A DNA stretch of 64,000 nt from Candidatus Shapirobacteria bacterium (GTDB lineage Bacteria > Patescibacteriota > Microgenomatia > UBA12405 > BS750m-G30). The notes beneath the pieces are model-generated. The model did no database searches and was not told the DNA's origin. It saw only the letters and a program-made list of their open reading frames with translations. The stretch lies in assembly GCA_043817235.1 (NCBI GenBank), contig JBDRHA010000011.1, forward strand, positions 107,467-171,466, written 5' to 3'. Of this stretch, positions 8,376 through 62,779 are shown piece by piece (position 1 is the first letter of the stretch; the number at the start of each line of letters is the position of its first letter). The position numbers and the translations under genes are program-made.

Positions 8376-8430
8376 GGGAACCGGGGGCTTGTTTGTCAAA
8401 AATCGACAAAAACAAAGCCGCCCGGCTCCC
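8376..8430. repeat. 55-bp hairpin-forming repeat, copy 1 (identical to 9851-9905)
   Basis: GGGAACCGGGGGCTTGTTTGTCAAAAATCGACAAAAACAAAGCCGCCCGGCTCCC; internal imperfect palindrome GGCTTGTTTGTC...GACAAAAACAAAGCC; at the low-GC/high-GC boundary. Confidence 0.9.
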
Positions 8431-8453: not shown

Positions 8454-9638
8454 CTATTGACTATAGCATTTCTCCCAGGAATCCATGGCCCACATGGCGT
8501 CATCTCCGCCGCATGGTTTCCAGCCGTCTATCAGCTTCTCTGCATAGACATCCGCCATCGAGCGGGCCGCGGGATCAGCGGCAGGTGAGAACGGCGCTAA
8601 AGTAATCGCGCCTTCTGCCAAGCCATGATTCCACCTGAACCCTACGAAACCTCCCTCCAGAGTTTTCCGGACGGCCCAGGTGTATATGTCCGACCAATCG
8701 ATCACCACGCTGGTGAGAATGTGGTCGTTGGGCGCCACGCGCTCGGCCCAGTTGGAATCGTAGCCGATCACCCAGACATCGGTGTCCACCAGCGCCGTAC
8801 CGGCAGCCGTGCTGTCCTGGTGCACTGCCACCACTCTCGCCCCCTCTTCTTTGAGCGCCAGCGCCCCGGCGGTCTCGTCGCCTAAGTTCTCCCAATTGTT
8901 GATATACACAGTGGAAATGCTGACCGGCAGCCCTCCCCCCTTCTCAGCCCAAGTGTCGGCGAAGCAGGCGGCGCACGCCCCGTGGTTGGAGGCTACCTGA
9001 GGATTCTCCGCATAGGCGCCCAGCATGCCAAGCTCAGGCTCATCCACAATAGCCGCCGCGGCAGCGCAGGCCGCACAGAATCCTTCCCACGATTTCGGGT
9101 ACATGGACACCAGGTTCGTGGCCACCGGCCCGCGGATGCAAGCGAAATTCACGTCGGGGTGGCTTGGCGCCACGTTTTCCTGCAGATCTTGGCACCAGTT
9201 CTCGGCGGTGACAAAGACCAGCCTGGCGCCTTTGGAAATCATGTCCTCAGCCACACGTGAAGCTTCTGTGGCGCTAAAATCCGTAGTCGCCGTCCAGGAA
9301 AGGGTGTTGACTACCACCTTACCTGTGCCATCCACAACTCTAAAGCCTTCCCCGTCCTCTTCCACCTGCATACCCTGGGATGGATCGTAGACAGCTTCCA
9401 AGGCCTGCCGCAGACCCTCCCGGTGCGCGGCCGACCAAGGGATCTGAACCGGCGAGATGTAGATCATTCCGATAGTAGTCAGATCCACAGTCTCTGCTGC
9501 ATCCGTAGGTTGCGACTGCGGCTGGGCGGTTAGCTGCACTGGCGGCGCTACTAGCGGAGCCGTGCACGCGCTGAAGACGCAGGACAGGGTGAACAAGAAA
9601 AACGTTGCGGCAAGGGCCACCAGGTGAACGCGTTTCAT
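8454..9638 (-). CDS. BMP-family (PnrA-like) ABC-transporter substrate-binding lipoprotein, probable nucleoside binding
   Basis: High-GC gene. RBS AAAGGAG plus ATG at 9638, giving MKRVHLVALAATFFLFTLSC with a lipobox; BMP-family motifs. The ORF-track start at 9728 is probably too far upstream. Confidence 0.65.
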   Translation of the reverse strand: MKRVHLVALAATFFLFTLSCVFSACTAPLVAPPVQLTAQPQSQPTDAAETVDLTTIGMIYISPVQIPWSAAHREGLRQALEAVYDPSQGMQVEEDGEGFRVVDGTGKVVVNTLSWTATTDFSATEASRVAEDMISKGARLVFVTAENWCQDLQENVAPSHPDVNFACIRGPVATNLVSMYPKSWEGFCAACAAAAAIVDEPELGMLGAYAENPQVASNHGACAACFADTWAEKGGGLPVSISTVYINNWENLGDETAGALALKEEGARVVAVHQDSTAAGTALVDTDVWVIGYDSNWAERVAPNDHILTSVVIDWSDIYTWAVRKTLEGGFVGFRWNHGLAEGAITLAPFSPAADPAARSMADVYAEKLIDGWKPCGGDDAMWAMDSWEKCYSQ

Positions 9639-9850
9639 CTTGTGTTCTCCTTTTCTTTTTTTTTGAGTACTCGGGACAACAACGCCGGCTTGCCAAGCCT
9701 TTAGGCAATTCCTCCTTTTAAGGTGCATAAAAAAAGAAAGGTTTTTTAGGGAAATCGCAATTGACTTCCCCTTGCCTTTCTTTTAATTCCTCTGTTTTTG
9801 AGAAACAAAAGAAATCCTATTATTATATACTAAGACTCATTTTACTTCTC

Positions 9851-9905
9851 GGGAACCGGGGGCTTGTTTGTCAAAAATCGACAAAAACAAAGCCGCCCGG
9901 CTCCC
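9851..9905. repeat. 55-bp hairpin-forming repeat, copy 2
   Basis: Perfect 55/55 identity with 8376-8430; lies between the two BMP genes. Confidence 0.9.
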
Positions 9906-9929
9906 AAAAGCACCTTAATCTGAAGGCTA

Positions 9930-11023
9930 CTACGGAGCGCCCACCACCCCCTCTACGAACCAACTCATGGAAAGCATGTCAGCGTCGCTCATGCACTGGC
10001 CGGAAGCGATTGCTAGAGCACCGTCCTGGCTATTGATAGGACCGCAGAAGACGTCCCACTCGCCACTGAGGATGACCTGCTCGCGCTCTTCCACCAGGTC
10101 CGCCACATCGACCGGCACACGCTCGCTCAGATCAGCCAGGGCCACGATGCCATCATTCATGCTGCCCCAGTACTGGTGCGTCTCCCAACTTCCATCGAGC
10201 ACGGCCTGCACCTGCCGCACGTAGTAGGGACCCCAATTCCACATGGGGCTGGTCAACACCGTGTCGCCCACGAACTCACGCATATCCGAGTCGTAGCCGA
10301 TGCTCAAGGCCCCGCGGTCGGCGGCGGCCTTCTGGGGTTCGGTGGTGTCCTGATGTTGAGCGATGATGTCAGCGCCCACATCGAGCAGCCCTTCGGCGGC
10401 TTCCTTCTCCAGGACCGGGTCGAACCAGGTGTTGGTCCAGACCACGCGCACCTCGGCTTCGGGATTGGCCTCGCGCACACCCAGGGTGAAAGCGTTGATG
10501 CCGCGCACAACCTCAGGGATGGGGAAGGCGGCGACATAGCCAATGATGTTGGAATGGGTCATGCGGCCAGCCACCAGACCAGAGAGGTAGCGGGGCTGGT
10601 ACATACGGCAAAGTAAGTAGCGGCGTTGTCCAGCGTCTTGTAGCCGGAGCAGTGCATGAAGACCACGTTGGGGTACTCGGCGGCGACGTTGACCGTCGGG
10701 TCCATGAACCCAAACGAGGTGGTGAAAATGACGTCGTAGCCTCGTTGGGCGAAGTCGCGGATGACCCGTTCGGCATCCGGGCCTTCGGGCACGTTTTCGA
10801 TGTAGGTGGTTTCGACTTGATCGCCGAAGGTTGCTTCGACCTGCAGTCGACCTTGCTCGTGGGCCCAGGTCCAGCCGAGGTCACCGATAGGGGCGACGTA
10901 GACGAAGGCTACTCTGAGAACCTCCGCCTCAGGGGCAGGAGCCGCGGGCTGAGCCACTGGCGGCGCGCAACCAACTATCAACGCTAGAATCACGACAACT
11001 AGCAAAGCCAAATTCTTCTTCAT
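9930..11023 (-). pseudogene. BMP-family substrate-binding lipoprotein gene split by a frameshift near 10600-10660
   Basis: N-terminal piece 10559-11023 (MKKNLALLVVVILALIVGC lipobox, RBS CTCCTT at 11032) and C-terminal piece 9930-10604 are in different frames. The concatenation reads as one BMP protein (...KTLDNAATYFA / RMYQPRYLSGLVAGRM...). Confidence 0.55.
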
Positions 11024-11095
11024 CTTTCTTCTCCTTAAGAATTATTGAGATGAGACAGAGGTGCGATGTTCTGCACCTCTGTCTTTGCGAAACTC

Positions 11096-13033
11096 CTACC
11101 GCACGACCTCCCTGCATTCCCCGGTGGTCACGTTGACGAATCCGGAGGGGCAGTCCTCGAAGGGAGCCACGAGCACCCACTTCCAAGGCTGGCAGGTCAG
11201 GGTTTGGAACCGTGCCGATTCGGCACTTTGGAGCGCGGCTGAACTATATGCCGGGCTCTCCACTGGCAGGTAGGAGAGCCATTCCAGTCCGGCGGCGGAC
11301 TCCCAGAAAGCCTCGAAATCCTCGGCTACCTCATGCGCGGGTCGCGACGACATGAGCCCGCCGATCTCCAACTGGACATAGTCCACTACCTCGCCACCCG
11401 AGACCAGGACATAGCCGCCGTTGATGGAGGCCAGGTAGTTGACGGCCTGAGCCATGGCCTCGTCGCTGGTGCCCATCACCTGGACGTTGTGATTATCGTG
11501 CGCCTCGCTCAGGGCGAAGGCCGTATCCGGCGTGGCCGGACCGACGTCGCGCCAGAACATGCAGGCCACCGGATCTGCTAGCGCATTGTAGCGGTCGACG
11601 ATGCAGAACTTGCTGACCTTGTTGGCGACGTCGCGCTGGACCGCTCCGTCTACCACCGGCAGCTCGACTTCTGGGTAGGTGGGAGCGAAGTAGAACTGGC
11701 TTAAGACGGCGGCCATGGCCGTATTGCCTTCTGCCGCCACCACGAAATCGTCTGCCGTCACCTCGCGGCCGATGTTGATGGTGTCTTGCGCCCATTCTGG
11801 CCAGTCGACGGTCGGAATCTCGTAGACCAACTGGCCATCCACGCCGACGAGCTTGCCGGAGGCCCAGACTCTGTTGATATCGACGGTCTCCGGGTTGCGC
11901 AAGAGCACGACATGGGCATACCGCCCGGGGGCGATGGAGCCCACCAGGTGCTCGAGATGCCAGTGACGTGCGGCCGTATAGGAGGCCGAGGCGTAGGCTG
12001 CCTCTACAGGGACGCCCAGCTGGATCGCCGTCCTGGTGTTGTAGTCCATGGTCCCCAGCTCCAGAGCCTCGTCCACGCTTCGGTCGTCCGTGGTCCAGGA
12101 CATGTTGGACCAGTCCTTCAGCCCCATCTTGATAAGGTAAGGAATGACCTTTCCCATGGAGCCTGTCCTGATTTGAATGAAGACCCCGTGGCGAAGCTTG
12201 TCCAAGACTTCGGCGCCTTCGCGAATCTCGTGATCGGATGACAGCCCGGCGGCTGCGAAGGCATTGATCTCATCGTAGGTGAACATGCGGCTGCCGTGGC
12301 CCTCGATCACCCCGTCTGCATCCCAGGTGGCTTGTAAGGCCTGCCACATGCGTTCGTATCCGGGCATCTCTGGGTTCCACACCGATGGCCAGTCCATGAC
12401 CTCGCCCAGTCCAATCACCCAGGGGTGGCTGTTCATGAGCTCCGTGACCGCATCGTAGTCGTAGTAACCCCCGGTGAACTCGAACGGCGTCGGCGGGATG
12501 GCCGAGCCTAGCTGTGGGAAAATGGTTAGTGGGCTGCCATTCTGGTGGGGAAGCAGCCACAATTCGGCGTTGTGGTCGCCATCCACGTTGCCAAACTCGT
12601 GCGATGCTTCTGCGATCCAGGTTGTCCCCTGCGGCAGAACCACTTCGGCTTCGCGGTCCGGCGAAAGATGGCTGGACTCGATGTGCTTGTGGGGTTCGCC
12701 GAACCCCGGCACCGCGTAGAGGCCGTAGGCGTCCACCGTTTCCGCGGCCGTTCCCGACCAGGCGCCGCGGGGACCCACCCAGGCAATCCGCTCGCCTTTG
12801 ATGACGATGTCCTGGCTGGGCATCCAGGTTAGGGTGTGGACGTCGAGGACCGTTGCACCGGAAATGATCAGGTCTGCTTCGGCCCTGCCCAGAGCGACCA
12901 GCACCAGCTCCTGGCGGACCTTCACTTCATCCGATGGGAAGTCTTGCCGGTCGAAGTCGGCTGCGGCAGGCAATGCCCCTGTCACAAGCAGTGCTGCCAA
13001 CAGCATTACACTTAGCAATGCTTTGTGTTTCAC
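11096..13033 (-). CDS. adenine deaminase family amidohydrolase with an N-terminal Sec signal peptide
   Basis: ISGATVLDVHT and PGFGEPHKHIESS and GLGEVMDWP match adenine deaminase motifs. The likely start is GTG at 13031-13033 preceded by AAGGAG, giving MKHKALLSVMLLAALLVTGALPAAADF. Confidence 0.6.
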   Translation of the reverse strand: MKHKALLSVMLLAALLVTGALPAAADFDRQDFPSDEVKVRQELVLVALGRAEADLIISGATVLDVHTLTWMPSQDIVIKGERIAWVGPRGAWSGTAAETVDAYGLYAVPGFGEPHKHIESSHLSPDREAEVVLPQGTTWIAEASHEFGNVDGDHNAELWLLPHQNGSPLTIFPQLGSAIPPTPFEFTGGYYDYDAVTELMNSHPWVIGLGEVMDWPSVWNPEMPGYERMWQALQATWDADGVIEGHGSRMFTYDEINAFAAAGLSSDHEIREGAEVLDKLRHGVFIQIRTGSMGKVIPYLIKMGLKDWSNMSWTTDDRSVDEALELGTMDYNTRTAIQLGVPVEAAYASASYTAARHWHLEHLVGSIAPGRYAHVVLLRNPETVDINRVWASGKLVGVDGQLVYEIPTVDWPEWAQDTINIGREVTADDFVVAAEGNTAMAAVLSQFYFAPTYPEVELPVVDGAVQRDVANKVSKFCIVDRYNALADPVACMFWRDVGPATPDTAFALSEAHDNHNVQVMGTSDEAMAQAVNYLASINGGYVLVSGGEVVDYVQLEIGGLMSSRPAHEVAEDFEAFWESAAGLEWLSYLPVESPAYSSAALQSAESARFQTLTCQPWKWVLVAPFEDCPSGFVNVTTGECREVVR

Positions 13034-13500
13034 GTTAATCTCCTTGTTGGTTGGTATATGGTGAATCGCGGTGTTGGCCAAGAACGCTTGGCGTTAACGC
13101 TGTCCTCTGCCTTCATCTGGTTGACTGCCAGATTAAGACAGTTCTTGCTTTTTTAAAAGCAAGACGAATATAGGAACAGCAGGAAGAAAAAACCACTAAA
13201 AATATTAATCTAATAATCTTTTTTTCCCGCTGTTCCTTTAGCCTTCAAATTGTTAAGGTGCTTTAAAAAAGTTCAGAGAAAAGCGCTTGAAAAAATCGCT
13301 TTTGATTTTTTTAGCTTTTTTCTCCAGTTTCCCTTTTTGGAAACAAAAAAACCCGGGATATATTTATCCCAGGTTCAGATTTTTTCCAAAACACAAAAAC
13401 GGTATTTGGTATGTGGCGCCCTGTTTCATTTATTTTATCTCCGGCAGGCCTTTGAGATACTATATTGTTTAAGCAAATATAGCTTTTTTCTAAAAGCTCG

Positions 13501-21804: not shown

Positions 21805-23730
21805 TCACTCTGTATCTAAATCCCAGCTATCATCAAAAACTTCCGTCCCTTCAAAGCAAAGCAAATTCTCTGATATATCCAGTAAAAAGCGAGAAGGTTC
21901 ATTAAAACTCATTTGGCCAAAATAAAGCCGCTTGCTGGCAAAACTCAAAAAAAGCCGCTTTCTGGCCCGGGTTAAGCCAACATAACAAAGCCGGCGCTCT
22001 TCTTCTAATCTTTCTTCTTCTTCTAAGGAACGGGCATGAGGGAGCAGGCCTTCCTCTAAGCCTACAATAAACACAGCCTCAAACTCTAATCCTTTACTGG
22101 CATGCAAGGTCATTAAACGAATGGCTTGGCTGGCCCAATCTTTTTTTTCTTTTTCCTGGACAAAATATTCTTGCTGAACTAAAGTCACATTTTCTAAAAA
22201 TTCACCTATGTCAGGAAAAGACTCGGCTACAGACAAGAGTTCATTAATATTTTCTAATCTCCGGCTGTCTTCCTCCTCGTCCGGATCATACTTTTCTAAA
22301 TAAGTACTCTTTTCTAAAAGGGCGCTAAGCAGACTTTTGCTCTCCCATGTCTCTTTTCTTTTTTCTTTAATAAAATCTTTAACCTTATTCGTTCTTCTTA
22401 TGCCCATATTTTTTACTAATCTTTCCAAAGAAACATCATCTTTAGGGTTATAAAAAAACCGAAGCAAAGATAAGGCGTCTTTTACTTCTTGCCTTTCATA
22501 AAAGCGCACCCCACCAATTAGTATATAGGGCAAGCCCCGCCTAATTAAAACCTCTTCAATTACCCGCGATTGAGCATTAGTTCGATACAAAATAGCAATT
22601 TTCGTCGGGTCTGTACCTTTAAAATCCACCAGGGTCTTAATTTTATCTGCTACCCAAGCCGCCTCACCGCCTTCGGAAAGTGCCTGATAAACTACAGCTT
22701 TTTCTCCACCTTTATTCTCTGTTCTCAATCTTAAAACCGGGTGCTTGCTATTTTGCCGAATAACTTCAAAAGCTATGTCCAAAATATTTTGAGTAGAACG
22801 ATAATTAACCTCCAAATTAACGGTCTTGATTTTTGGAAAATCAGATTTTAAATTAAGCAAATTCCGGTAATCAGCTCCTCGCCAAGAATAAATCGCTTGA
22901 GAGGCATCGCCAACTACGGTTAGATTTTGATATTTTTGAGCCAGCAGCTTGGTAAGCAGATACTGAGGACGATTGGTATCCTGATACTCATCTACCAATA
23001 TATACTTATACCTTTCCTGAAATATTTTTAATACATTTTCTTTTTCTTCCAAAAGACGCACTGCTTGACAAAGTAAATCTGTAAAATCTAAAGCATTCAT
23101 TTCCTGCAGCTTTTTTTCATATTCAAGATATACTTTAGCCACTACCTTTCGATAAGGATCATAAGCCTTTTTGCCAAAACTTTTGGCGTCCAGAAGTTCG
23201 TTTTTTGCTTGCTCGATAATCGCTTTTAAAACCACTGGCTTAAAACGTTTATCAGATAAATCAAATTTCTTTAAAATATTTTTAAGTAAAGATTGTGAAT
23301 CTCCCTCGTCAAAAATCACAAAATTGGGAGATAAATTGATTGCTTTGCCAAAAGAACGAAGCGAATATCCACCAAAAGAGTGGAAGGTTCCGGCAAATAA
23401 ATTCGCCTTCTTATTTTCGCCCAAAAGACTCAAAAGCCTTTGCTTCATTTCTCCGGCCGCCTTATTGGTAAAAGTTAAGAGCAAGAGCTCATTTATTTTT
23501 GCTTTTCCGGCGGCCACCAGCCAAGCCGCCCGATGAGTTAAAACCCGGGTCTTGCCGCTGCCAGCACCGGCCAAAACCAAAAGCGGCCCCCTGTCATGCG
23601 TCACCGCTTGCTTTTGAGCCGTATTTAAATCTTTGAATAAATCTTCCACTCTATTATTGTAACAGTAAATTAGGTTTTTAATTGGCAGTTTATTGATACT
23701 ATGTTTCGATGTATCGATACATCGAAACAT
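21805..23730 (-). CDS. UvrD/PcrA-family DNA helicase (start uncertain)
   Basis: LVLAGAGSGKTRVLTHR, VDEYQDTN, VVGDASQAIYSWRGA, no intein. The ORF-track N-terminus MFRCIDTSKHS is a translation of the palindrome at 23701-23730, so the real start is probably downstream (non-ATG). Confidence 0.75.
   Translation of the reverse strand: MFRCIDTSKHSINKLPIKNLIYCYNNRVEDLFKDLNTAQKQAVTHDRGPLLVLAGAGSGKTRVLTHRAAWLVAAGKAKINELLLLTFTNKAAGEMKQRLLSLLGENKKANLFAGTFHSFGGYSLRSFGKAINLSPNFVIFDEGDSQSLLKNILKKFDLSDKRFKPVVLKAIIEQAKNELLDAKSFGKKAYDPYRKVVAKVYLEYEKKLQEMNALDFTDLLCQAVRLLEEKENVLKIFQERYKYILVDEYQDTNRPQYLLTKLLAQKYQNLTVVGDASQAIYSWRGADYRNLLNLKSDFPKIKTVNLEVNYRSTQNILDIAFEVIRQNSKHPVLRLRTENKGGEKAVVYQALSEGGEAAWVADKIKTLVDFKGTDPTKIAILYRTNAQSRVIEEVLIRRGLPYILIGGVRFYERQEVKDALSLLRFFYNPKDDVSLERLVKNMGIRRTNKVKDFIKEKRKETWESKSLLSALLEKSTYLEKYDPDEEEDSRRLENINELLSVAESFPDIGEFLENVTLVQQEYFVQEKEKKDWASQAIRLMTLHASKGLEFEAVFIVGLEEGLLPHARSLEEEERLEEERRLCYVGLTRARKRLFLSFASKRLYFGQMSFNEPSRFLLDISENLLCFEGTEVFDDSWDLDTE
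23703..23728. promoter_or_regulatory. perfect 26-bp palindrome GTTTCGATGTATCGATACATCGAAAC, copy 1 (putative operator)
   Basis: 40 bp upstream of the YerC/TrpR-like gene; identical copies at 24228-24253 and 62677-62702. Confidence 0.6.
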
Positions 23731-23767
23731 AGTACTTGCATGTTTAAAATTCTCATGATTAAATGTT

Positions 23768-24217: not shown

Positions 24218-24227
24218 AAATTCATCT

Positions 24228-24253
24228 GTTTCGATGTATCGATACATCGAAAC
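24228..24253. promoter_or_regulatory. 26-bp palindrome copy 2
   Basis: Identical to 23703-23728; 10 bp past the YerC-like stop, in the convergent gap with the DUF2298 gene. Confidence 0.6.
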
Positions 24254-24258
24254 GGGAA

Positions 24259-54361: not shown

Positions 54362-54440
54362 TTTTAAAGTTTAGCAAACAGCTTTAGGCTTGGCAAGACC
54401 AAGCTGTTTTTGATAAAATTAAGAAGTCTTAGATTTTCGC

Positions 54441-54514
54441 GGGCCGTTAGCTCAGTTGGCTAGAGCACTGTCCTGATAAGACAGGGGTCTCAGGTTCGAG
54501 TCCTGAACGGCCCA
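54441..54514 (+). tRNA. tRNA-Ile (anticodon GAT)
   Basis: 74 nt; acceptor stem GGGCCGT/ACGGCCC, D-arm GCTCAGTTGGCTAGAGC, anticodon loop CTGATAA, T-arm TCAGGTTCGAGTCCTGA; no encoded CCA. Confidence 0.85.
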
Positions 54515-54551
54515 CAATTCTAGATATAGTTTCTGGAGCGGGTTCCCTCCT

Positions 54552-54605
54552 GGCCGCGCCCGCACACGCAAGCGATTTTCATTTAATACAAGATTAAGTT
54601 TCTCC
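54552..54605. repeat. modular intergenic element, copy E (module 3 only)
   Basis: GGCCGCGCCCGCACACGCAAGCGATTTTCATTTAATACAAGATTAAGTTTC is shared with copies at 56490-56560 and 57990-58040; followed by an extended -10 TGGTAGAAT at 54622-54630. Confidence 0.75.
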
Positions 54606-54636
54606 TTTAAGTAAGTGATTTTGGTAGAATTAATCA

Positions 54637-55791
54637 ATGAAAATCCGTAGCTTTACTAAACTATTTTACATTTTTCAATTTTTCACTGATTTTGTTTTCA
54701 TATACGCTGTTGAAAAGTTATTTATGCTAAATAGAGGCCTTAATCTTTCTCAAATCGGTATCTTGCTTTTTCTCTGGTCAGCTATGACTTTATTACTAGA
54801 AGTGCCTAGCGGCGCAATTGCTGATCGTTGGAGCCGAAGAAAAATGCTAATTTTGTCAGGCATCTCTTACTCCCTATGTTACTTTCTTTGGATTTTTAGC
54901 CACTCTTTTTGGCTCTTTTTATTTGGCTTTTTGCTAAGAACCATTGGCAGTACTTTTTCTTCCGGAACCCTTCAGGCTTATGTTTATGATTTTTTAAAAA
55001 CAAAAAAAGCAGAAAACCACTTTGAAATAATCTGGGGAAAAGGTAACGCTCTAAGGACTTTGGGCATTGGAATTGCAGTTGCTCTGGGTGGTTTTATTAG
55101 TGAAATTTCTTTTACGATAACCGTCTTTCTTTCTGCCTTGCCAGTGTTAACAACTGCCATTATTGCTTTTATTTGGCCAGAAGTGGAAATAGCTCAATCA
55201 ACCCAAGAAACCAAGTACTGGCAGTTTGTCAAAAACTCATTTAAAACCATTAAAGAGAGCAAGGTACTTCTTAGACTAATGATTTATCTAGCCATTGTCC
55301 TAGCTTGGTTAGCTAGTTTAGAAGAATTTAATGATATTTATTTAAATTCCCTAGGATTTTCAAGATCAATAATTGGTCTTATTTTTGCTCTAGCTGCTGC
55401 AGGTCAAGCTCTAGCCAGCAGCCTAGCTCATAAGTTTAAAAAACACTCTTGGCTAATAATTAATTTGTCAGTAATAATCACTGCCCTGATTATGTTCACA
55501 GCCGCAATTATCAAACACCCAATAATGGCAATAGGAATTTTGTTTCTAGGAGTAATGATGGAATTTGTTTCCGTTATTAAAGAAAGTATTGTCCAAAAAG
55601 AAACCAAATCTTACCAGCGGGCCACTGTTTCTTCAATGAGTGGTTTAATCATGAATCTTATTCCCCACCAACTTGCTTTTGGCTTTATTGCTAATTACTA
55701 TAGCTTTCAAGTCGGCTATGGTTTTTTTGGAATATTCGTCTTGTTATACTTTTTAATTACTCTTTTTGTCCCCAATAATAAAAACCGCTAA
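54637..55791 (+). CDS. MFS transporter
   Basis: 12 TM; GAIADRWSRRKML (MFS motif A). Confidence 0.7.
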   Translation: MKIRSFTKLFYIFQFFTDFVFIYAVEKLFMLNRGLNLSQIGILLFLWSAMTLLLEVPSGAIADRWSRRKMLILSGISYSLCYFLWIFSHSFWLFLFGFLLRTIGSTFSSGTLQAYVYDFLKTKKAENHFEIIWGKGNALRTLGIGIAVALGGFISEISFTITVFLSALPVLTTAIIAFIWPEVEIAQSTQETKYWQFVKNSFKTIKESKVLLRLMIYLAIVLAWLASLEEFNDIYLNSLGFSRSIIGLIFALAAAGQALASSLAHKFKKHSWLIINLSVIITALIMFTAAIIKHPIMAIGILFLGVMMEFVSVIKESIVQKETKSYQRATVSSMSGLIMNLIPHQLAFGFIANYYSFQVGYGFFGIFVLLYFLITLFVPNNKNR

Positions 55792-56360
55792 TGAATAGCC
55801 TAATTTCAAGAAAACTAAAAATAATCATAATTGATGCCCCTAGCTTAACAAAAAAACAGATAAAAGATAAAAAAGGGCTGCAAGCGCTTTGTTTTGGCAG
55901 CCTTGACCCTCAAGAAATAGAAGAAGATTTTTGCCATCCAGAAACTGCCCATGTTTTAGCTTACCTTAATAAACAACTGTCAGGTTGGGCAGGAATTCAC
56001 CTTGAAAACACAATTTACAACAACAAGAAAATTAAACTAGGCGGCTTTGGTATTTGCACCCATCCAAAACATCGGCAAAAAGGAATCGCCAGCAAAGTAT
56101 CTCAAAAAGCAATGGGGTATTTAAAACAACAAAAGTGTGATTTGGCATTTTTATCGATTGATCCTTCCAAAAAAGGTCCAAAAGAACTTCACCAAAAAAC
56201 CGGATTTGTTAGTCTGCCCAATAATTTTTCTTGGATAAGTAGATCAGGAAAAAGAAAACTAGGAAAGGAAGGAATGATTGCTCCCCTTTCTTCTCCAAAA
56301 ATATTTAAGCAAATACTCAATGGAAAAGAAATTCTCCATATAGCCAAAGGATATTGGTAG
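55791..56360 (+). CDS. GNAT-family N-acetyltransferase
   Basis: ...GGFGICTHPKHRQKGIASKV... GNAT motif A-like; start codon overlaps the MFS stop. Confidence 0.55.
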   Translation: MNSLISRKLKIIIIDAPSLTKKQIKDKKGLQALCFGSLDPQEIEEDFCHPETAHVLAYLNKQLSGWAGIHLENTIYNNKKIKLGGFGICTHPKHRQKGIASKVSQKAMGYLKQQKCDLAFLSIDPSKKGPKELHQKTGFVSLPNNFSWISRSGKRKLGKEGMIAPLSSPKIFKQILNGKEILHIAKGYW

Positions 56361-56369
56361 TTAACCCTA

Positions 56370-56560
56370 CTCGCCCAAGGGGCGAGAAAATCGCGCGCCC
56401 TAAAAAAGCGAGGGCCAAGGGCCCGAGCTTAACCGTTGTTCGGGGAGGTTCGGATTTGTTGGTAAAGATCCACCACTGAAGAAATCACAAGGGGATCAGG
56501 AAAATGCTGGGCCGCGCCACCCTTCGTGACTTTCAATTAATACAAAATTAAGTTTCTTTT
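56370..56560. repeat. modular intergenic element, copy A (modules 1+2+3)
   Basis: CTCGCCCAAGGGGCGAG hairpin, AAAATCGCGCGCC, ...AAAAAAGCGAGGGCC..., TTAACCGTTGTTCGGGGAGGTTCGGATTTGTTGGTAAAGATCCACCA, then GGCCGCGCC...TTCAATTAATACAA..TTAAGTTTC. Confidence 0.8.
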
Positions 56561-56741
56561 CTTCAGGTAAATTCTGGTAAAATCAAGAATAATTTTAAAT
56601 TACTTAAGAGCTGGCTTTGCTGTCTATTTTCTCGGCTTATTCGCCTTCCTCATAAGCCACAAAGGTGCTTTTGGCGATTTATCCTTCTACTATCTTTCTT
56701 ACTTTATCCAGCTCTTTCTTCTTTTAGAAGTCGCTAGGGTA

Positions 56742-57161
56742 GTGACTTACAAACTGAAGCTAAAACTAAAATTCAAAGGTGTGTATTTACTTTTACTTTT
56801 CTACACCATTATTAATTCTTTAGTTTTAGCCTTTTTCCCTAATTTAAGAAACTTAATTTTCAATCGCTTCGGCCATCTGCTTTCCGGGATTATTTTTTCA
56901 ATACTTGCCCACAATATTCTTAAAGCCACCAAAACAACAAGGCAACTCTCAAAACCCCTGTTTTATTTCTTTGTTTTCTGCTTTGCCAGCACCGCCGGAG
57001 TTTTTAACGAAATTATTGAGTTAATTCTAGATCTTACTGCCAGGAGCCAAAGACTCGGGCCCACTCCCGATACAGCTACTGATTTACTAATGAATACCCT
57101 TGGAATCAGTGCTTATCTTCTCTTTAAAAAAAACAATGACCAAAAAAGAAAAACTAATTGA
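56742..57161 (+). CDS. hypothetical membrane protein (start uncertain; frame is open back to 56571)
   Basis: GTG start in the ORF track; the in-frame upstream stretch is hydrophobic (AGFAVYFLGLFAFLI), so the gene may be longer. Confidence 0.35.
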   Translation: MTYKLKLKLKFKGVYLLLLFYTIINSLVLAFFPNLRNLIFNRFGHLLSGIIFSILAHNILKATKTTRQLSKPLFYFFVFCFASTAGVFNEIIELILDLTARSQRLGPTPDTATDLLMNTLGISAYLLFKKNNDQKRKTN

Positions 57162-57789
57162 GCTAGCTAAAGTCCTGCTGGTAATTATAATTCTATCAGT
57201 TGCCTTGCGCTACTTAATCCCTACTTTAACCTCGGAGGAGTTTAAGCTGTTTGTGCAAAAACTAGGACCATTAGGCCCTTTAGTAATCATTATCTACACT
57301 ACCCTTTCTCATGTCTTGGCTCCTTTAGCAGGAACGCCAGGAATTTTACTGAGCGTGGCAGTATTTGGAATATTTAAAACGATGTTTTACATCTACCTTG
57401 GAAGCATGATTAGCGCTGCTCTCAATTTCTATATCAGTCGCAAATTTGGAAGAGGCTGGGTAACCAGATTAGTAGGAAAAAGAACCATGAAGGAAGTTGA
57501 TGATTTTGTTAAAGCTTCAGGAGAAAAAGTTTTAATTTTAAGTCGAATCTTTGGCTTTTCCCTTTTTGAAATTATTTCCTACGCTGCCGGTCTAACTAAT
57601 ATTAATTTCAAAAGATATCTTATGATCACCCTATTATTTACCTTAATTCCCAATCTCTTTTTTACTTACCTCTTTAGAAACATGGACTTTTCCTCAAATC
57701 TAAATCTAGTTATCTGGCTAGCAACTCTCATTATCACTGGACTAATCTTTTCCTTTTTCATTAAAAAAGCAATTAACAAAAAGAAGTAG
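57100..57789 (+). CDS. DedA / TVP38-TMEM64 family membrane protein
   Basis: ...LILSRIFGFSLFEIISYAAGLTNINFKRYL... characteristic of the SNARE-associated/DedA family. Confidence 0.6.
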   Translation: MESVLIFSLKKTMTKKEKLIELAKVLLVIIILSVALRYLIPTLTSEEFKLFVQKLGPLGPLVIIIYTTLSHVLAPLAGTPGILLSVAVFGIFKTMFYIYLGSMISAALNFYISRKFGRGWVTRLVGKRTMKEVDDFVKASGEKVLILSRIFGFSLFEIISYAAGLTNINFKRYLMITLLFTLIPNLFFTYLFRNMDFSSNLNLVIWLATLIITGLIFSFFIKKAINKKK

Positions 57790-57817
57790 GTCTTTTTGTT
57801 TTTAATAAAAACCAAAA

Positions 57818-58040
57818 CTCGCCCAAAGGGCGAGAAAATCGCGCGCTTCTTTCTTAAAAAAAGCGAGGGCCAAAGGGAGTTTAAAACTCTTTTTTCAATA
57901 CAGCTTAACCGTTGTTCGGGGAGGTTCGGATTTGTTGGTAAAGATCCACCATCCACAAAATGGATTTGGGATTTGGCCTGATTTTGGCCGCGCCCCCGCT
58001 CGCAAGCGATCTTCAATTAATACAAGGCTAAGTTTCCTTC
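57818..58040. repeat. modular intergenic element, copy B (modules 1+2+3, with an extra GAGTTTAAAACTC hairpin)
   Basis: CTCGCCCAAAGGGCGAGAAAATCGCGCGC...; its module 2 (57905-57950) is 45/45 identical to copy A; module 3 is followed by an extended -10 TGATAAAAT. Confidence 0.8.
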
Positions 58041-58136
58041 CTTGAAAAAGCGATTTTTGATAAAATATCCTTAATATATAAACCCTACTTAATCCCCATT
58101 TCAGTTAAAGGCATTGTTTTTCGAAAAAATAGTGTT

Positions 58137-58490
58137 TGGCTAAGAAAAAATGAAAGGAATGAGTGGGAATTGCCCGGTGGGAAAATGGACAAAGGAGAAC
58201 AGCCTGAACAAACAATAGTAAGAGAGCTGGAAGAAGAGCTAGGTTTTAAAACTAAAGTAGTAAACATTATTCAGGCTTACCTTTACACTATCAAAACTTC
58301 TACCGACGAAGCGAGAGGAGTTTTAGTTGTTTCATATCTTTGTGAATTATTAGAAAAAACAGGAAATTTTGAAACCGAAGGAGAAGCTGGCCCAGCTCAA
58401 TTTAAAAAGTTCCCCATCAAAAACATTCCTTCTTTAAAAATGCCTCAGTTTTACAAAAAAGCTATTCTTAAAGCTTCAAGGCAAAAATAA
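58137..58490 (+). CDS. NUDIX hydrolase (non-ATG start; exact start uncertain, frame open from 58032)
   Basis: Nudix box GGKMDKGEQPEQTIVRELEEELGF; upstream in-frame VKGIVFRKNSVWLRKNERNEWELPGGK indicates a TTG/other start before the ORF-track position 58170. Confidence 0.6.
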   Translation, partial: WLRKNERNEWELPGGKMDKGEQPEQTIVRELEEELGFKTKVVNIIQAYLYTIKTSTDEARGVLVVSYLCELLEKTGNFETEGEAGPAQFKKFPIKNIPSLKMPQFYKKAILKASRQK

Positions 58491-58528
58491 TTATGTCAAA
58501 AAAATTAAGTTTTACGTGATTTACAACA

Positions 58529-59185
58529 TTAAACTACCCTCATTATTGAGCCTTCTTTCCCCTTCTGCTCAACAATAATTAGAGCATGGAAATTTTGATA
58601 GACTTTTACTTTTTTTGGCAATGACTTTTCAAAAAGCTCTTTAAGATTGTCATAACTCAGCTGTTTTGATATTTTTTCTCTACTAACCAATCTTTTGGTA
58701 TATTCATCAATAATAAAAGTCCGCTGGTCAGTAGCGTATAGAAGAATCGTGTCCGCGGTTTCTGGACCAATACCATAAAGACTAAGTAATTTTTCCCGAG
58801 CAGGAACCAAATCCTCCTTAGAAAAATTGTTTAGATCTTTATAATTATCAACAATAAAAGAAGCAAGGCCAAAAAGACGCCTTGGTTTTGTTTGATAAAA
58901 ACCAGCTGGCCTAATTAATTCTATTAATTTGTTAAGTTTTTTCAAAGAAGCAATGCTTTTTAAACTAAGCAGTTTTTCTTTTTTCAAATTCCTTAAGGCT
59001 AAATCAGCATTATGCCAACTAGTTCTTTGAGTTAAAATAGCACCAATAGCAATTAAGTCTCTTAACCTGGGAGTCTTTTTTTTAGCACACCACTGGGGCC
59101 AAAACTTTTCTGGGTCACCATGTCTTTTGTAAAGCTCTATATAAAGCTTATGGATTTTGTTTCTACTTCTCATCTTTTCTAGCAC
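58529..59185 (-). CDS. HhH-GPD superfamily base-excision repair protein (endonuclease III-like, no FeS cluster)
   Basis: Helix-hairpin-helix LLSLYGIGPETADTILLYA followed by a catalytic D; 218 aa. Confidence 0.6.
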   Translation of the reverse strand: MLEKMRSRNKIHKLYIELYKRHGDPEKFWPQWCAKKKTPRLRDLIAIGAILTQRTSWHNADLALRNLKKEKLLSLKSIASLKKLNKLIELIRPAGFYQTKPRRLFGLASFIVDNYKDLNNFSKEDLVPAREKLLSLYGIGPETADTILLYATDQRTFIIDEYTKRLVSREKISKQLSYDNLKELFEKSLPKKVKVYQNFHALIIVEQKGKEGSIMRVV

Positions 59186-59218
59186 TGATGAATATATTTT
59201 ACCCTAATTTTGCGAAGC

Positions 59219-59364
59219 AAAAAAATCGCGCGCCTTCTTCCTAAAAAAGCGAGGGCTAGGGGCCCGAGCTTAATCACTGTTCGGGGAGGTTCGGATTTGT
59301 TGGTAAAGATCCACCATTTCCAATATGCTCTCTGACTCGGGCGGATTTTGGGCCGCACCCGCAA
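59219..59364. repeat. modular intergenic element, copy C (modules 1+2, partial 3)
   Basis: AAAATCGCGCGCC...AAAAAAGCGAGGGCTAGGGGCCCGAGCTTAATCACTGTTCGGGGAGGTTCGGATTTGTTGGTAAAGATCCACCA...GGGCCGCACCCGCAA. Confidence 0.8.
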
Positions 59365-59863
59365 ATATACCTATAAGGGAAAATGTTTAGGAGGGTGTTG
59401 AAAAACGCTGTACAACATGCGCACCGCTGGGCGGATGTACCACATTCGCACCCGAGAGTAGCGTCAAAGCGGGACGGCGCTCCAAAATCGGGACTATTTG
59501 ATGCACTTCAGCCCACCAACAACATGCGAACTCACTTTTTCGACACCCTCTTTGTGACACATTTGACAAGATTTGGAGTCTGTGGCACATTTGTATTAGT
59601 TGGCAATATGCATCGGCGGAGAGGCTTCATTCAGGAACCAAGTCCGCCGATAGTTTCTGCTATTCTTCGTCTCGACCGATTCTCGAACGATCTTCCCTTC
59701 TCCATTGTCATGAGAGTCGAGCGTGGTGGCGTTCTATTGCCGGTTTCCACGTCTGGCTCATGGAGGTCCCCAGTTGCCGCGTTGATTCGCGGCTTGCGGT
59801 TTTCTACGATGTCTGAAACGGGCGCGTCATGCCCTTGCTCAACCCCAATCTGGAGCGATAAGC

Positions 59864-60400
59864 TTATCTGGTGTTGCTCACTTTGCCACGTGGGTAGCTC
59901 AAGAGTGATCTTCGGTGGTAAAGCGTGATGCGAGCCGCAAGAGCGGCGTTGCCCAGGAACAGCAAAGCTAGCAGCAGAAGATTGATCGTAAATTCGAGTC
60001 CGGGCGATAAGGTGCGTTGAACACCGTCGCCCAAAAATGGAACCATGTACAGCAATGCTAAGATAGTAAACAGGAGCATGTTGACAAGTGTCGCAAGAAA
60101 TCCAAATGCGACAGATATCCACAGGTAAGTTCTTGAGATTCGTGCTTGCTTTCTGCAAAAAGTCCAAACCGAAAAACCGATGACCGCTAATACGGCAGCC
60201 AGAAGCAACACGGCGGCTTGCCATATGACCCCTTCGACAAAATGAGAGATGCCACTCATTTCTCGAAAGGAGTCAAAAGCTGGCCAATACATGTAGCCTA
60301 TAAGGTAGCTCACGGGGGCAGAGAAGGCCATCAGGAGTACGCCGATGAGTGCCCCGAGGCTACAGATTGGTTTACGTAGCGTCAGCTTTTCATCGTCCAT
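59864..60400 (-). CDS. hypothetical 4-TM membrane protein encoded in a higher-GC islet
   Basis: 178 aa, hydrophobic helices, ~50+% GC unlike neighbouring genes; the overlapping ORFs 59383-59928 and 59631-60224 look non-coding. Confidence 0.4.
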   Translation of the reverse strand: MDDEKLTLRKPICSLGALIGVLLMAFSAPVSYLIGYMYWPAFDSFREMSGISHFVEGVIWQAAVLLLAAVLAVIGFSVWTFCRKQARISRTYLWISVAFGFLATLVNMLLFTILALLYMVPFLGDGVQRTLSPGLEFTINLLLLALLFLGNAALAARITLYHRRSLLSYPRGKVSNTR

Positions 60401-60440
60401 AACGTATTCTCAAGCTTGAGTATAATCCTTACCTTCATGT

Positions 60441-60980
60441 TTAGGCCTCTTGCTCAACAAAGTCAGAAAGATAGACCCCACTATCTTCATCAATTACTAA
60501 TCCTGGAAAATAATCACTAAGCACCCTAACTTCCAAAATACCCCTGATAACCGGTTGGTGCAAAACCATCGGAGGAATTACTATTGTCTCTCCCAGCTCT
60601 AATTCAACCCTTCTAATCTCGCCTTTTCTCTCCTTAATTACTTGTCTTAATATTTCTGGATCTTTTAGTTGTTTAAAAGGAATGCCTGATTCTCTTAGAT
60701 CCAAAAGATAGACATGTCCCTCCCCATTAACCCAAATTTCCTCCTTTTCATCATCTTGACCAATTTCTACTTTGCCACTCTTAAGAGCATAACGCTTCTC
60801 TCCTTTTCGATTAACGCAAGTAGGCCCCTGTCCTACCTCTAGAGATTCTGCTGAAAAAACATCTCCCCAATATTTTCCCTCGGGAACTTCATAGTCTATC
60901 CCATACGCTAGCAATGGTTCCTGGCCTTCTTCATCAAAACTTACCCGTGCTCCTGGTGGTCTTTCGGCATTAATTGACAT
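60441..60980 (-). CDS. hypothetical protein (possibly cupin-like beta-barrel)
   Basis: 179-aa ORF, low-GC codon usage, no firm motif. Confidence 0.3.
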   Translation of the reverse strand: MSINAERPPGARVSFDEEGQEPLLAYGIDYEVPEGKYWGDVFSAESLEVGQGPTCVNRKGEKRYALKSGKVEIGQDDEKEEIWVNGEGHVYLLDLRESGIPFKQLKDPEILRQVIKERKGEIRRVELELGETIVIPPMVLHQPVIRGILEVRVLSDYFPGLVIDEDSGVYLSDFVEQEA

Positions 60981-61023
60981 TAATTTATTTTATCATTAAT
61001 CACGAAAATGATATAATTTAACC

Positions 61024-61548
61024 ATGAATATTCTTGAAGAAATACGTCAAGCAAATAAAAAGCCAAAAGAGATGGCGCTTTTTTTAACCAAAAAGTTCCA
61101 ACAACAAAAACCAACTCCGAAGGAGTATCGCACTGCTCTAGAAAACGCTTCTAAAGTAGAGCAAGGAGTTTTAATTGAAACCATGGAATTTATTACCCAA
61201 GAAAACCCTTCTTTTGCCAAGCCCTTTCTGGGCATTATCATCGAATATATAGCCAGCCCGATTCCCAAGGCAAAATGGGAAGCTGCCCGCATAATCGGTA
61301 ATGTAATTAAAGAGTTACCCACTCAAGCTGAAAAAGGAATTCCCAATCTTTTGGTCAATACTAATGACCAAGGAACAGTTGTTCGTTGGAGTGCTGCCTT
61401 TGCTCTAGGAGAAATTATCAAGCATCACTCCAAAATCCGCCCTAAGCTGATGCCGAAAATAGAAAAAATCATCAAAAAAGAGCAAAACAGCGGAGTAAAA
61501 AACGTCTATCTCAAGGCCTTTAAAGAAATCGAAAAGCAATCAAGTTAA
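61024..61548 (+). CDS. HEAT/ARM-repeat protein (tentative)
   Basis: Repeated alpha-helical units (...AARIIGNVIKELP..., ...VRWSAAFALGEIIKHH...). Confidence 0.35.
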   Translation: MNILEEIRQANKKPKEMALFLTKKFQQQKPTPKEYRTALENASKVEQGVLIETMEFITQENPSFAKPFLGIIIEYIASPIPKAKWEAARIIGNVIKELPTQAEKGIPNLLVNTNDQGTVVRWSAAFALGEIIKHHSKIRPKLMPKIEKIIKKEQNSGVKNVYLKAFKEIEKQSS

Positions 61549-61625
61549 TAACTTGAAATATTTACCCTAAAACCAGCAAAGTTGGCTAAAAACGCGTACG
61601 CTTTAAAAAAGCGAAGCAAAAAAAT

Positions 61626-61886
61626 TTAGCCAAAAACAGCTTTTTTTAGGTAACCCTTAATTAAAGATTGATAGGGCACATTAATTTCATTAGCTTGCTC
61701 TTTAATCCGGTTAATCAAATATTCAGGCAAACGAATAGAAATCGCCCTCGTGGTTGGTTTCAGATTAGGAAAAGAGACTCTTTGGAAGTCACTAGACTCA
61801 AAATAATCAGCTAAATTAATTTTAGCCCAAAACTCTCTTTCTTTATCTTCGTCTTTAAACTTTGGCAGTTTAAGTGGCTTTTTCAT
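61626..61886 (-). CDS. brnA: BrnA-family antitoxin
   Basis: MKKPLKLPKFKDEDKEREFWAKINLADYFESSDF... plus a C-terminal RHH-like region; start placed at the internal Met, overlapping the BrnT stop by ~17 nt. Confidence 0.55.
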   Translation of the reverse strand: MKKPLKLPKFKDEDKEREFWAKINLADYFESSDFQRVSFPNLKPTTRAISIRLPEYLINRIKEQANEINVPYQSLIKGYLKKAVFG

Positions 61887-62166
61887 GTAATTTCCTTTCT
61901 TTTTTATTAACATCTCGGCCAGAAATAACCCTGACCTTTTTGCCCCTAAGGGTAAAAACAACAAATAATAATCTATTTCTTTTTGTTTCTCCTAATAAAA
62001 TGAATCTCTCCTCTTTTTCCGAGTGAAACCGGTCTTTACCAATTACCTTGCTTTCATCAAAAAAAACTTCTTCGCATTCCTTATTAGTTACTTTATGCTT
62101 AATCCAGTTTTTTTCTCTATTCCCTTTATCCCAAATAAACTCGACCGAATTTCCTATTAATAACAT
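61870..62166 (-). CDS. brnT: BrnT-family (DUF497) toxin
   Basis: FIWDKGNREKNWIKHKVTNKECEEVFFD...RFILLGETKRNRLLFVVFTLRGKKVRVISGRDVNKKERKLH matches the BrnT/DUF497 pattern. Confidence 0.65.
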   Translation of the reverse strand: MLLIGNSVEFIWDKGNREKNWIKHKVTNKECEEVFFDESKVIGKDRFHSEKEERFILLGETKRNRLLFVVFTLRGKKVRVISGRDVNKKERKLHEKAT

Positions 62167-62219
62167 TTCTGTATCTCTTTATTGTATATACTGTGTTATA
62201 CCTTGTCAAGGGTAATTTC

Positions 62220-62326
62220 AAAATCGCGCGCTTTCCTTTAAAAAAAGCGAGGGCTAAAGGCCTGACCCGCCTGCCGGCAGGCGGGGCTTCCATCGTTAGG
62301 CGGGATTGAGCGAGGTTCGGATTTTT
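62220..62326. repeat. modular intergenic element, copy D (module 1, degenerate module 2, with a 20-bp GC palindrome)
   Basis: AAAATCGCGCGCTTTCCTTTAAAAAAAGCGAGGGCTAAAGGCC..., CCCGCCTGCCGGCAGGCGGG (62266-62285), ...GAGGTTCGGATTTTT. Confidence 0.7.
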
Positions 62327-62353
62327 CTATAAGCTTTTGTTAAAATATAATTT

Positions 62354-62599
62354 ATGCCCAAATGGTCGCTAAATATTTTGACTGATAATGCTCTGGCCAA
62401 AATGAAAAAGCACGGATTAAGCCAGGGAGAAATCCAGGGCGCTTTTGAAAGATATCAAAAAAAGGAAAATGGCCCTATTTCTGGTTGTACTAGTTTTATA
62501 AGAATCTTGAGGAGCCGGGAAATCGGGGTTATTGCCCGGCAAAAAGAAAATGGCTTGTGGTGTATAGTCAGCGTCTGGCAAAGAAAGCTTTATAAATGA
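62354..62599 (+). CDS. hypothetical small protein
   Basis: 81-aa ORF directly downstream of element copy D. Confidence 0.3.
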   Translation: MPKWSLNILTDNALAKMKKHGLSQGEIQGAFERYQKKENGPISGCTSFIRILRSREIGVIARQKENGLWCIVSVWQRKLYK

Positions 62600-62676: not shown

Positions 62677-62702
62677 TGTTTCGATGTATCGATACATCGA
62701 AA
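62677..62702. promoter_or_regulatory. 26-bp palindrome copy 3
   Basis: GTTTCGATGTATCGATACATCGAAAC is identical to the copies flanking the YerC-like gene; ~75 bp upstream of the 62780 ORF. Confidence 0.6.
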
Positions 62703-62779
62703 CATAAAAGGGCAATATGTCTTGGCATATTACATTTTCTCCTTGACACCAGAGAGAATAAATATTATCCTAGTTTCAC

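Follow-up and report, generated by a model that had tools for sequence, protein, structure and literature searches.

Positions 59392-60436 of the 64,000-nucleotide stretch analysed here (the window), which lies on a contig of 336 kb in a CPR/Patescibacteria MAG assigned to Candidatus Shapirobacteria, are on balance probably a discrete 1,045-bp segment of recently acquired foreign DNA resembling a non-autonomous transposable cassette. This reading was made from the nucleotide sequence and is suggested by an exact 9-bp direct repeat at the composition step on both sides, which supports and sharpens the insertion idea put forward in the preliminary description of this DNA. The segment contains one intact membrane-protein gene, the remainder showing no coding signal, and a single copy of it is known.

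Composition and boundaries of the islet

The higher-GC islet of about 1 kb described earlier was readily found, with 50.5% GC across 59392-60436 as compared with about 38% in the host and 36-38.5% in the flanks; its non-coding part (59392-59863, about 470 nt) reached 52.5%, and the window outside its two islets has about 38%. When GC content was followed in 30-nt steps, it changed within about 20 nt of positions 59390 and 60440. The span had to be corrected, because the right limit lies at 60436 instead of 60400 and a 9-bp direct repeat is present on both sides. The features of the segment and of the gene that it adjoins are the following:

59383-59391, no strand: left copy of the direct repeat ATGTTTAGG, a putative target-site duplication and the sole 9-mer common to both boundary zones
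59391-59405, plus strand: left inverted-repeat arm GAGGGTGTTGAAAAA, putative left terminus of the insertion (14/15 match)
59406-59535, no strand: 130-nt interior, 56.9% GC, with direct repeats TGTACAACATGCGCACC, TGTACCACATTCGCACC and ACAACATGCGAAC
59536-59550, minus strand: internal partner arm (reverse complement GAGGGTGTCGAAAAA); the left arm and this one delimit a MITE-like unit of 160 nt
59551-59863, no strand: 313-nt non-coding spacer downstream of the four-TM gene, with no protein similarity in any frame
59864-60400, minus strand: passenger gene for a 178-aa protein with four transmembrane helices (NCBI ABIB61_03970), recognised from its ORF, homolog, model and GC3
60401-60436, minus strand: 36-nt leader and putative right terminus of the insertion, with a near-perfect palindrome inside and a weak mirror of the left end
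60437-60445, no strand: right copy of the direct repeat ATGTTTAGG, overlapping 60441-60443, where the 179-aa host gene has its stop codon
60441-60980, minus strand: target host gene, a 179-aa ORFan (ABIB61_03975), taken from the ORF list; GC3 0.29

The two exact copies of ATGTTTAGG (59383-59391 and 60437-60445) coincide with both GC steps, and only one further occurrence was found on both strands of the 64 kb, giving three in all. The left copy abuts the left inverted-repeat arm. Deletion of 59392-60445, that is, the insert plus one repeat copy, restored a plausible site (...GCAAATATACCTATAAGGGAAA-ATGTTTAGG-CCTCTTGCTC...), and the empty site predicted before insertion would be TATAAGGGAAAATGTTTAGGCCTCTTGCTCAAC, containing ...GGGAAAATGTTTAGGCCTCTTGC.... 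When zones were paired at random at a distance of 1,050 nt, a 9-mer was shared in 2.5% of the cases for zones of 50 nt and in 8% for zones of 91 nt, so that the direct repeat, taken by itself, is suggestive. Since the repeat is found at both GC steps, the arm abuts it and the right end weakly mirrors the left one, a coincidence of repeat, arm abutment and right-end mirroring appears unlikely, as judged by criteria that were chosen after the data had been seen.

The inverted repeat and the two ends

The inverted arms GGAGGGTGTTGAAAAA and TTTTTCGACACCCTCT, reported before as matching at 14/16 positions, were recovered and could also be delimited as 59391-59405 and 59536-59550 (14/15), with 130 nt between them. 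This inverted repeat is real and uncommon, since an equally good one appeared in 1/300 dinucleotide shuffles of the 498-nt segment and the 64 kb as a whole has only four of this kind, although chance alone should give about 0.4 per window. Further copies of the arms, allowing up to two mismatches, were not found in the 64-kb window.

The suggestion that the arms represent the terminal inverted repeat of an inserted element was upheld for the left arm, which is placed at the exact end of the insertion beside the direct repeat, but not for its good partner, which is internal, 160 nt in. The true right end is located 1,045 bp from the left one and matches it weakly: the reverse complement of the right terminus (GAAGGTAAGGATTATA) agreed with the left end (GAGGGTGTTGAAAAAC) at 8/16 positions, including 5 of the first 6, and only 0.14% of the 16-mers in the window match the left end as well on both counts. 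The terminal repeat of the insertion would be GAGGGTGTYGAAAAA. Different sequences flank the 160-nt unit (ATGTTTAG at the left and TTTGTGAC at the right), and it has no target duplication of its own.

Short repeats were also observed inside the islet. The direct repeats of the interior are located at 59409-59425 (TGTACAACATGCGCACC), 59436-59452 (TGTACCACATTCGCACC) and 59519-59531 (ACAACATGCGAAC); two copies of TGTACMACATKCGCACC occur within them at a distance of 27 nt, and a third, incomplete one adjoins the internal arm (59409-59452 and 59519-59531). The spacer bears the pair TGTGACACATTTG / TGTGGCACATTTG at 59553-59565 and 59581-59593, as well as TGTGRCACATTTG twice, 28 nt apart (within 59553-59593), and hairpins at 59613-59650 and 59776-59793. 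The short direct repeats could be candidate protein-binding sites. A near-perfect 20-nt palindrome, TATTCTCAAGCTTGAGTATA, occupies 60405-60424, flanked by the right end of the insertion on one side and the start codon of the four-TM gene on the other.

The same foreign DNA could have arrived by illegitimate or other recombination involving no dedicated mobility machinery, in which case the 9-bp repeat would have arisen by chance or reflect microhomology, and the inverted repeat would be either an incidental hairpin or something left over from the donor, for example a solo MITE or terminator. The composition contrast is real under this explanation too, and it would agree with the 2.5-8% expectation for a 9-mer repeat by chance, with the want of a good terminal inverted-repeat pair, with the fact that neither enzyme nor second copy was found, and with the presence in the same window of another foreign-looking segment, islet 1, that has no such border repeat. 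We nevertheless consider it rather unlikely, given that three independent features fall at the same two points (the repeat at the GC steps, the arm abutment and the partial mirror at the far end), and we retain the insertion of a cassette as the preferred reading.

Islet 1 (8454-13081, about 60% GC) contains genes for a Bmp/PnrA-like binding protein, a second Bmp protein and an adenine-deaminase-like protein. No non-trivial direct repeat was found at its borders, and the border signature of 59392-60436 was absent there. The second Bmp gene is split in two overlapping ORFs (9930-10604 and 10559-11023), indicating a frameshift or a pseudogene, and two perfect copies of a 55-nt imperfect palindrome (8376-8430 and 9851-9905) flank the first Bmp gene. 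Elsewhere in the window, a perfect 27-30-nt palindrome, TGTTTCGATGTATCGATACATCGAAACA, was observed in three copies (23700-23731, 24227-24256 and 62677-62706), the first two separated by 500 nt and the third at a distance of 38 kb.

The passenger gene and its surroundings

The gene previously proposed at 59864-60400 on the minus strand, encoding a 178-aa protein with four transmembrane helices, was confirmed by four hydrophobic segments, an all-helical AlphaFold2 model (pLDDT 68) and an end-to-end homolog. This homolog, P0002 (167 aa), aligned with 36% identity (E 1.6e-16) and was the one true relative obtained when 1.84 billion cluster representatives were searched exhaustively with HMMER; in a word-indexed search of 5.8 billion proteins, the 178-aa ORF matched itself alone. 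Comparison of the model with the PDB by Foldseek gave no match at E<=0.001, and Pfam and NCBIfam returned sub-threshold noise alone (DUF7471, E 0.012). GC3 was 0.55, versus 0.27-0.37 in the neighbouring host genes, suggesting that the gene has not yet drifted to host composition. It follows the 179-aa gene on the same strand after 40 nt and we saw no convincing promoter for it, so that its expression probably depends on read-through from the 179-aa gene.

P0002 is encoded next to PolA, Fpg and a VWA protein, in unrelated contigs of 54-57% GC (L001-L010), within which its own gene has 44.6% GC. The ten contigs listed, out of 14 read, all end 170-370 nt downstream of the P0002 gene, as would be expected if that region, too, were variable or repeated. 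The DNA downstream of P0002 had no similarity to the non-coding part of the islet and no flanking repeats.

The 179-aa gene, whose stop codon is touched by the right repeat copy, lies upstream of the four-TM gene. In the stretches 60441-61548 and 61626-62166, both the 179-aa protein and the HEAT-repeat protein encoded nearby were singletons among 5.8 billion proteins, and they adjoin a BrnT/BrnA toxin-antitoxin pair. The genes around the islet have mixed orientations. When synteny was followed through relatives of the HhH-GPD gene (L011-L019, 48-66% aa identity), the HhH-GPD gene was the only one in common and no empty site was visible. The tRNA-Ile-adjacent region as a whole clearly varies and shows little conservation.

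The non-coding part of the islet

About 460 bp of the islet had been described as having no convincing ORF. This was correct in that we detected no other coding sign, but one open frame of 181 codons fills the stretch (59383-59928, plus strand). An open frame of 183 codons was reached in 0.7% of dinucleotide shuffles (p ~0.007), the observed length thus exceeding 99.3% of them, and an AAGGGA motif is found just upstream of the ATG; both would favour an unannotated gene for a 181-aa protein. Such a gene is very doubtful, however, because the use of codon positions is flat (GC1/2/3 = 0.51/0.52/0.52), the ATG is supplied by the left copy of ATGTTTAGG and so lies inside a duplicated host 9-mer, the AlphaFold2 model of the ORF has a pLDDT of 33, and the ORF overlaps the four-TM gene antisense by 65 nt. 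No homolog was obtained in any frame: the six-frame concatenation of 59372-59875 matched nothing at E<=10 among 5.8 billion proteins, and Pfam and NCBIfam gave no match. PGAP also argues against it, since the accessions MFH1602084 (HhH-GPD) and MFH1602087 (HEAT) bracket exactly two genes, implying that no CDS was called in the non-coding part.

A structured ncRNA, the other possibility that had been raised for this stretch, was not borne out, since Rfam gave no match at E<=10 over 59150-59900 and the interior of the inverted repeat folded no better than shuffles. At the gathering threshold, Rfam recognised tRNA-Ile alone in the whole window, and an E-value search of 54400-62400 gave the same result. 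We considered 59391-59550 as an ncRNA gene or a 3' untranslated RNA element closed by the inverted-repeat stem, and judged this very unlikely. In its favour, with the arms included, 59385-59556 folded with z = -3.0 on the plus strand (-2.1 on the minus strand), and both mismatches of the 16-nt arms turn into G-U pairs on the plus strand only. The 130-nt interior alone, in contrast, gave z values of -0.43 and +0.79, like shuffles, which indicates that the fold signal of 59385-59556 comes entirely from the stem. Moreover, searches of plasmids, phages, JGI metagenomes and IMG/VR gave no homolog, leaving no covariation to assess, and a convincing flanking promoter or terminator was not found. The spacer (59551-59863) had fold z values of -2.0 on the minus strand and -0.3 on the plus strand.

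The modular repeat elements

To the left of the insertion there is a copy of a lineage-specific modular repeat. The elements of this kind in the window, all on the plus strand, are the following:

54507-54591, plus strand: 3' half of the modular repeat, after tRNA-Ile (54441-54515)
56366-56563, plus strand: intergenic modular repeat of about 190 nt
57814-58043, plus strand: intergenic modular repeat
59210-59363, plus strand: copy C, intergenic, outside the insertion, delimited by comparison of the elements
62220-62326, plus strand: intergenic modular repeat

Copies A, B and C and the partial copy D are real. Each begins with a GC hairpin, followed by AAAATCGCGCGC and AAAAAAGCGAGGGC; then come a core of 39 nt, identical among them, and the closing stem GCGCGCC/GGCCGCGC. 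The modular repeat had no Rfam match, and nothing like it was found in GTDB representative genomes, JGI metagenomes, IMG/VR or related CPR loci; these scans, made by exact pattern, gave 0 matches for the core in the GTDB representatives, 0 for the 5' motif in JGI and 0 for the core in IMG/VR.

The position of the islet right after element C had been taken as support for a cassette, and this argument was not sustained. Element C ends at about 59363-59365, and some 20 nt of AT-rich host DNA precede the insertion, which has its own direct repeat and whose target was the stop-codon region of the 179-aa gene. Copy C is without the 3' tail present in A and B; according to the reconstructed pre-insertion site, the insertion is not the cause of this difference. 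An attC reading of the modular elements was discarded, as core sites of the attC type are missing from them and there is no integrase nearby, and a tRNA-derived origin, considered by eye, was unsupported.

The repeat tail TTCAATTAATACAA..TAAGTTTC is shared at 54578-54640, 56532-56600 and 58012-58080, and is followed by extended -10-like motifs, recognised by eye (TGGTAGAAT, TGGTAAAAT and TGATAAAAT), which shortly precede the MFS, DUF2238/VTT and NUDIX genes. The modular repeats may be predicted to act as promoter carriers.

The assembly of the region

As the source of the sequence is a MAG, the islet could come from another organism and have been joined into the contig during assembly. The left flank adjoins a repeat at which an independent Logan assembly breaks, and none of three genes to the right of element C (0/3) had a copy in the Logan assemblies. 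This chimera is highly improbable, because it needs two chimeric joins at junctions that share 9 bp only, presumably too short for a k-mer join, and because, ahead of the junction, element C continues into about 50 nt of copy-specific sequence and then 20 nt that are AT-rich. The genome is covered patchily throughout in Logan, about half of the window genes checked being missing, so that absence of a gene from Logan is uninformative. The sole independent assembly of the locus, a 1,071-bp Logan contig (L029, SRR27458547), is identical to 58237-59307 of the window; it ends within the repeated core of element C, before the islet, and is therefore silent on the junctions.

Comparison with known mobile elements

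MICs and MITEs are both transposase-less derivatives of insertion sequences, told apart by the presence of coding sequence (PMC5444012). One example, the qnrS2 cassette of the Aeromonas plasmid pAC3, has no transposase, a passenger gene and a MITE inside (PMC5444012). Mobile insertion cassettes (MIC/MICE) and MITEs appear to be the closest known kinds to the inserted segment, judging from its arrangement. Like a MIC, the islet has no transposase, a passenger coding sequence, a length of about 1 kb, a short flanking direct repeat and a MITE-like unit. Described MICs differ in their clear pair of left and right inverted repeats (22 bp in pAC3), whereas the terminal pair of the islet matches at 8/16 positions and its good partner arm is internal; MICs are also related to an insertion sequence, whereas neither a related insertion sequence nor a second copy is known for the islet. 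The 160-nt unit resembles a MITE in its 15-nt terminal inverted repeats (14/15) and in having no coding capacity, but it has no flanking target duplication and is single-copy in the 64 kb.

ISEcp1-type units mobilise adjacent DNA by means of one good end and a weak alternative end; they hold their own transposase and make 5-bp duplications. One strong end, a weakly similar distal end, adjacent cargo and a duplication around the whole unit are likewise found in the islet, but it has no transposase and its repeat is 8-9 bp. A 9-bp target duplication is made by IS903B, of the IS5 family (PMC9769513, PMC13618097). The islet shares with the IS903 group this duplication size and a length of about 1.05 kb, unlike which it has no transposase homology in any frame. 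The IS903 terminal repeat presumably contains TGTTGAA, as does the islet arm, which we take as a lead only. An autonomous insertion sequence would have a transposase ORF between its ends, and there is none in the islet.

We also considered an integron-like cassette, made up of a promoterless ORF with an attC-like imperfect inverted repeat at its 3' end and a short core site. On the minus strand the order is indeed core repeat, ORF, spacer, inverted-repeat structure and core repeat, the end of the inverted repeat coincides with the boundary, and GTT is present in the repeat. The attC consensus has RYYYAAC (R'') in the 5' arm and GTTRRRY (R') in the 3' arm, and attC sites are 57-141 nt long. The arms of the islet show the reverse arrangement, GTYGAAA (5') and TTTCRAC (3'), on which ground an attC reading of the inverted repeat was rejected, and the unit, at 160 nt, exceeds the attC length. 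In addition, ORF and site are 313 nt apart, no intI-like gene or recombinase domain was found in the ORFs tested within the 64 kb, and instead of an array of cassettes in the same orientation the neighbouring genes have mixed orientations. We consequently hold this explanation to be exceedingly improbable. There is also a slim chance that the inverted-repeat unit, placed 3' of one promoterless gene and stopping right at a short repeated core, might be the recombination site of an undescribed single-gene cassette system in CPR bacteria.

A model for the insertion

According to the insertion model that we prefer, the segment would be composed of the 160-nt MITE-like unit at the left, the 313-nt spacer, one passenger gene and a poor distal end. 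A DDE-type transposase acting in trans would recognise the good left end together with a cryptic right end lying beyond the MITE-like unit's own right arm, and the whole segment would have been inserted at a staggered 8-9-bp cut, duplicating ATGTTTAG(G). The four-TM gene would thereby have landed 40 nt downstream of the 179-aa host gene, in the same orientation; in the 3' untranslated region, a stem of 15-17 bp would result from the inverted repeat. A variant with the same footprint would be a small circular molecule recombining at an 8-9-bp core; integration of a circle and transposition would leave identical traces here and would be inseparable.

Mobilisation in trans would be needed because no transposase or recombinase was found inside the insertion or among the window ORFs tested. 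The window, the GTDB representative genomes, the JGI metagenomes and IMG/VR yielded no second copy, no empty site and no partner insertion sequence or its transposase, so that the mechanism is one that we infer. Comparison of the islet with plasmids and phages by blastn gave no match, and exact-pattern scans gave 0 matches both for a 24-mer from the islet in the JGI metagenomes and for the paired inverted-repeat arms in IMG/VR. Several points count against the cassette model: the two termini match poorly (8/16), the well-matched partner arm being internal; the 160-nt unit has no duplication of its own; the direct repeat, taken alone, has a chance expectation of 2.5-8%; the statistics were combined only once the data had been seen; and the 181-codon open frame on the plus strand (p ~0.007) is left as a coincidence.

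Significance

The insertion of the islet would be an ordinary kind of event that leaves the general picture unchanged. It would give a sequence handle, namely the terminal repeat GAGGGTGTYGAAAAA and the 8-9-bp duplication, for the partner transposase and sister copies. If the inverted-repeat unit did belong to a CPR cassette system, such a system would be a functional analogue of attC with different core motifs, in a tRNA-Ile-adjacent variable region that holds the repeats A-D. CPR symbionts have reduced genomes, for which reason documented examples of gene gain are useful and, if the proposed reading is true, this locus would be a clean and recent case, resolved to the base pair, in which a Shapirobacteria genome acquired a membrane-protein gene on a transposase-less cassette.
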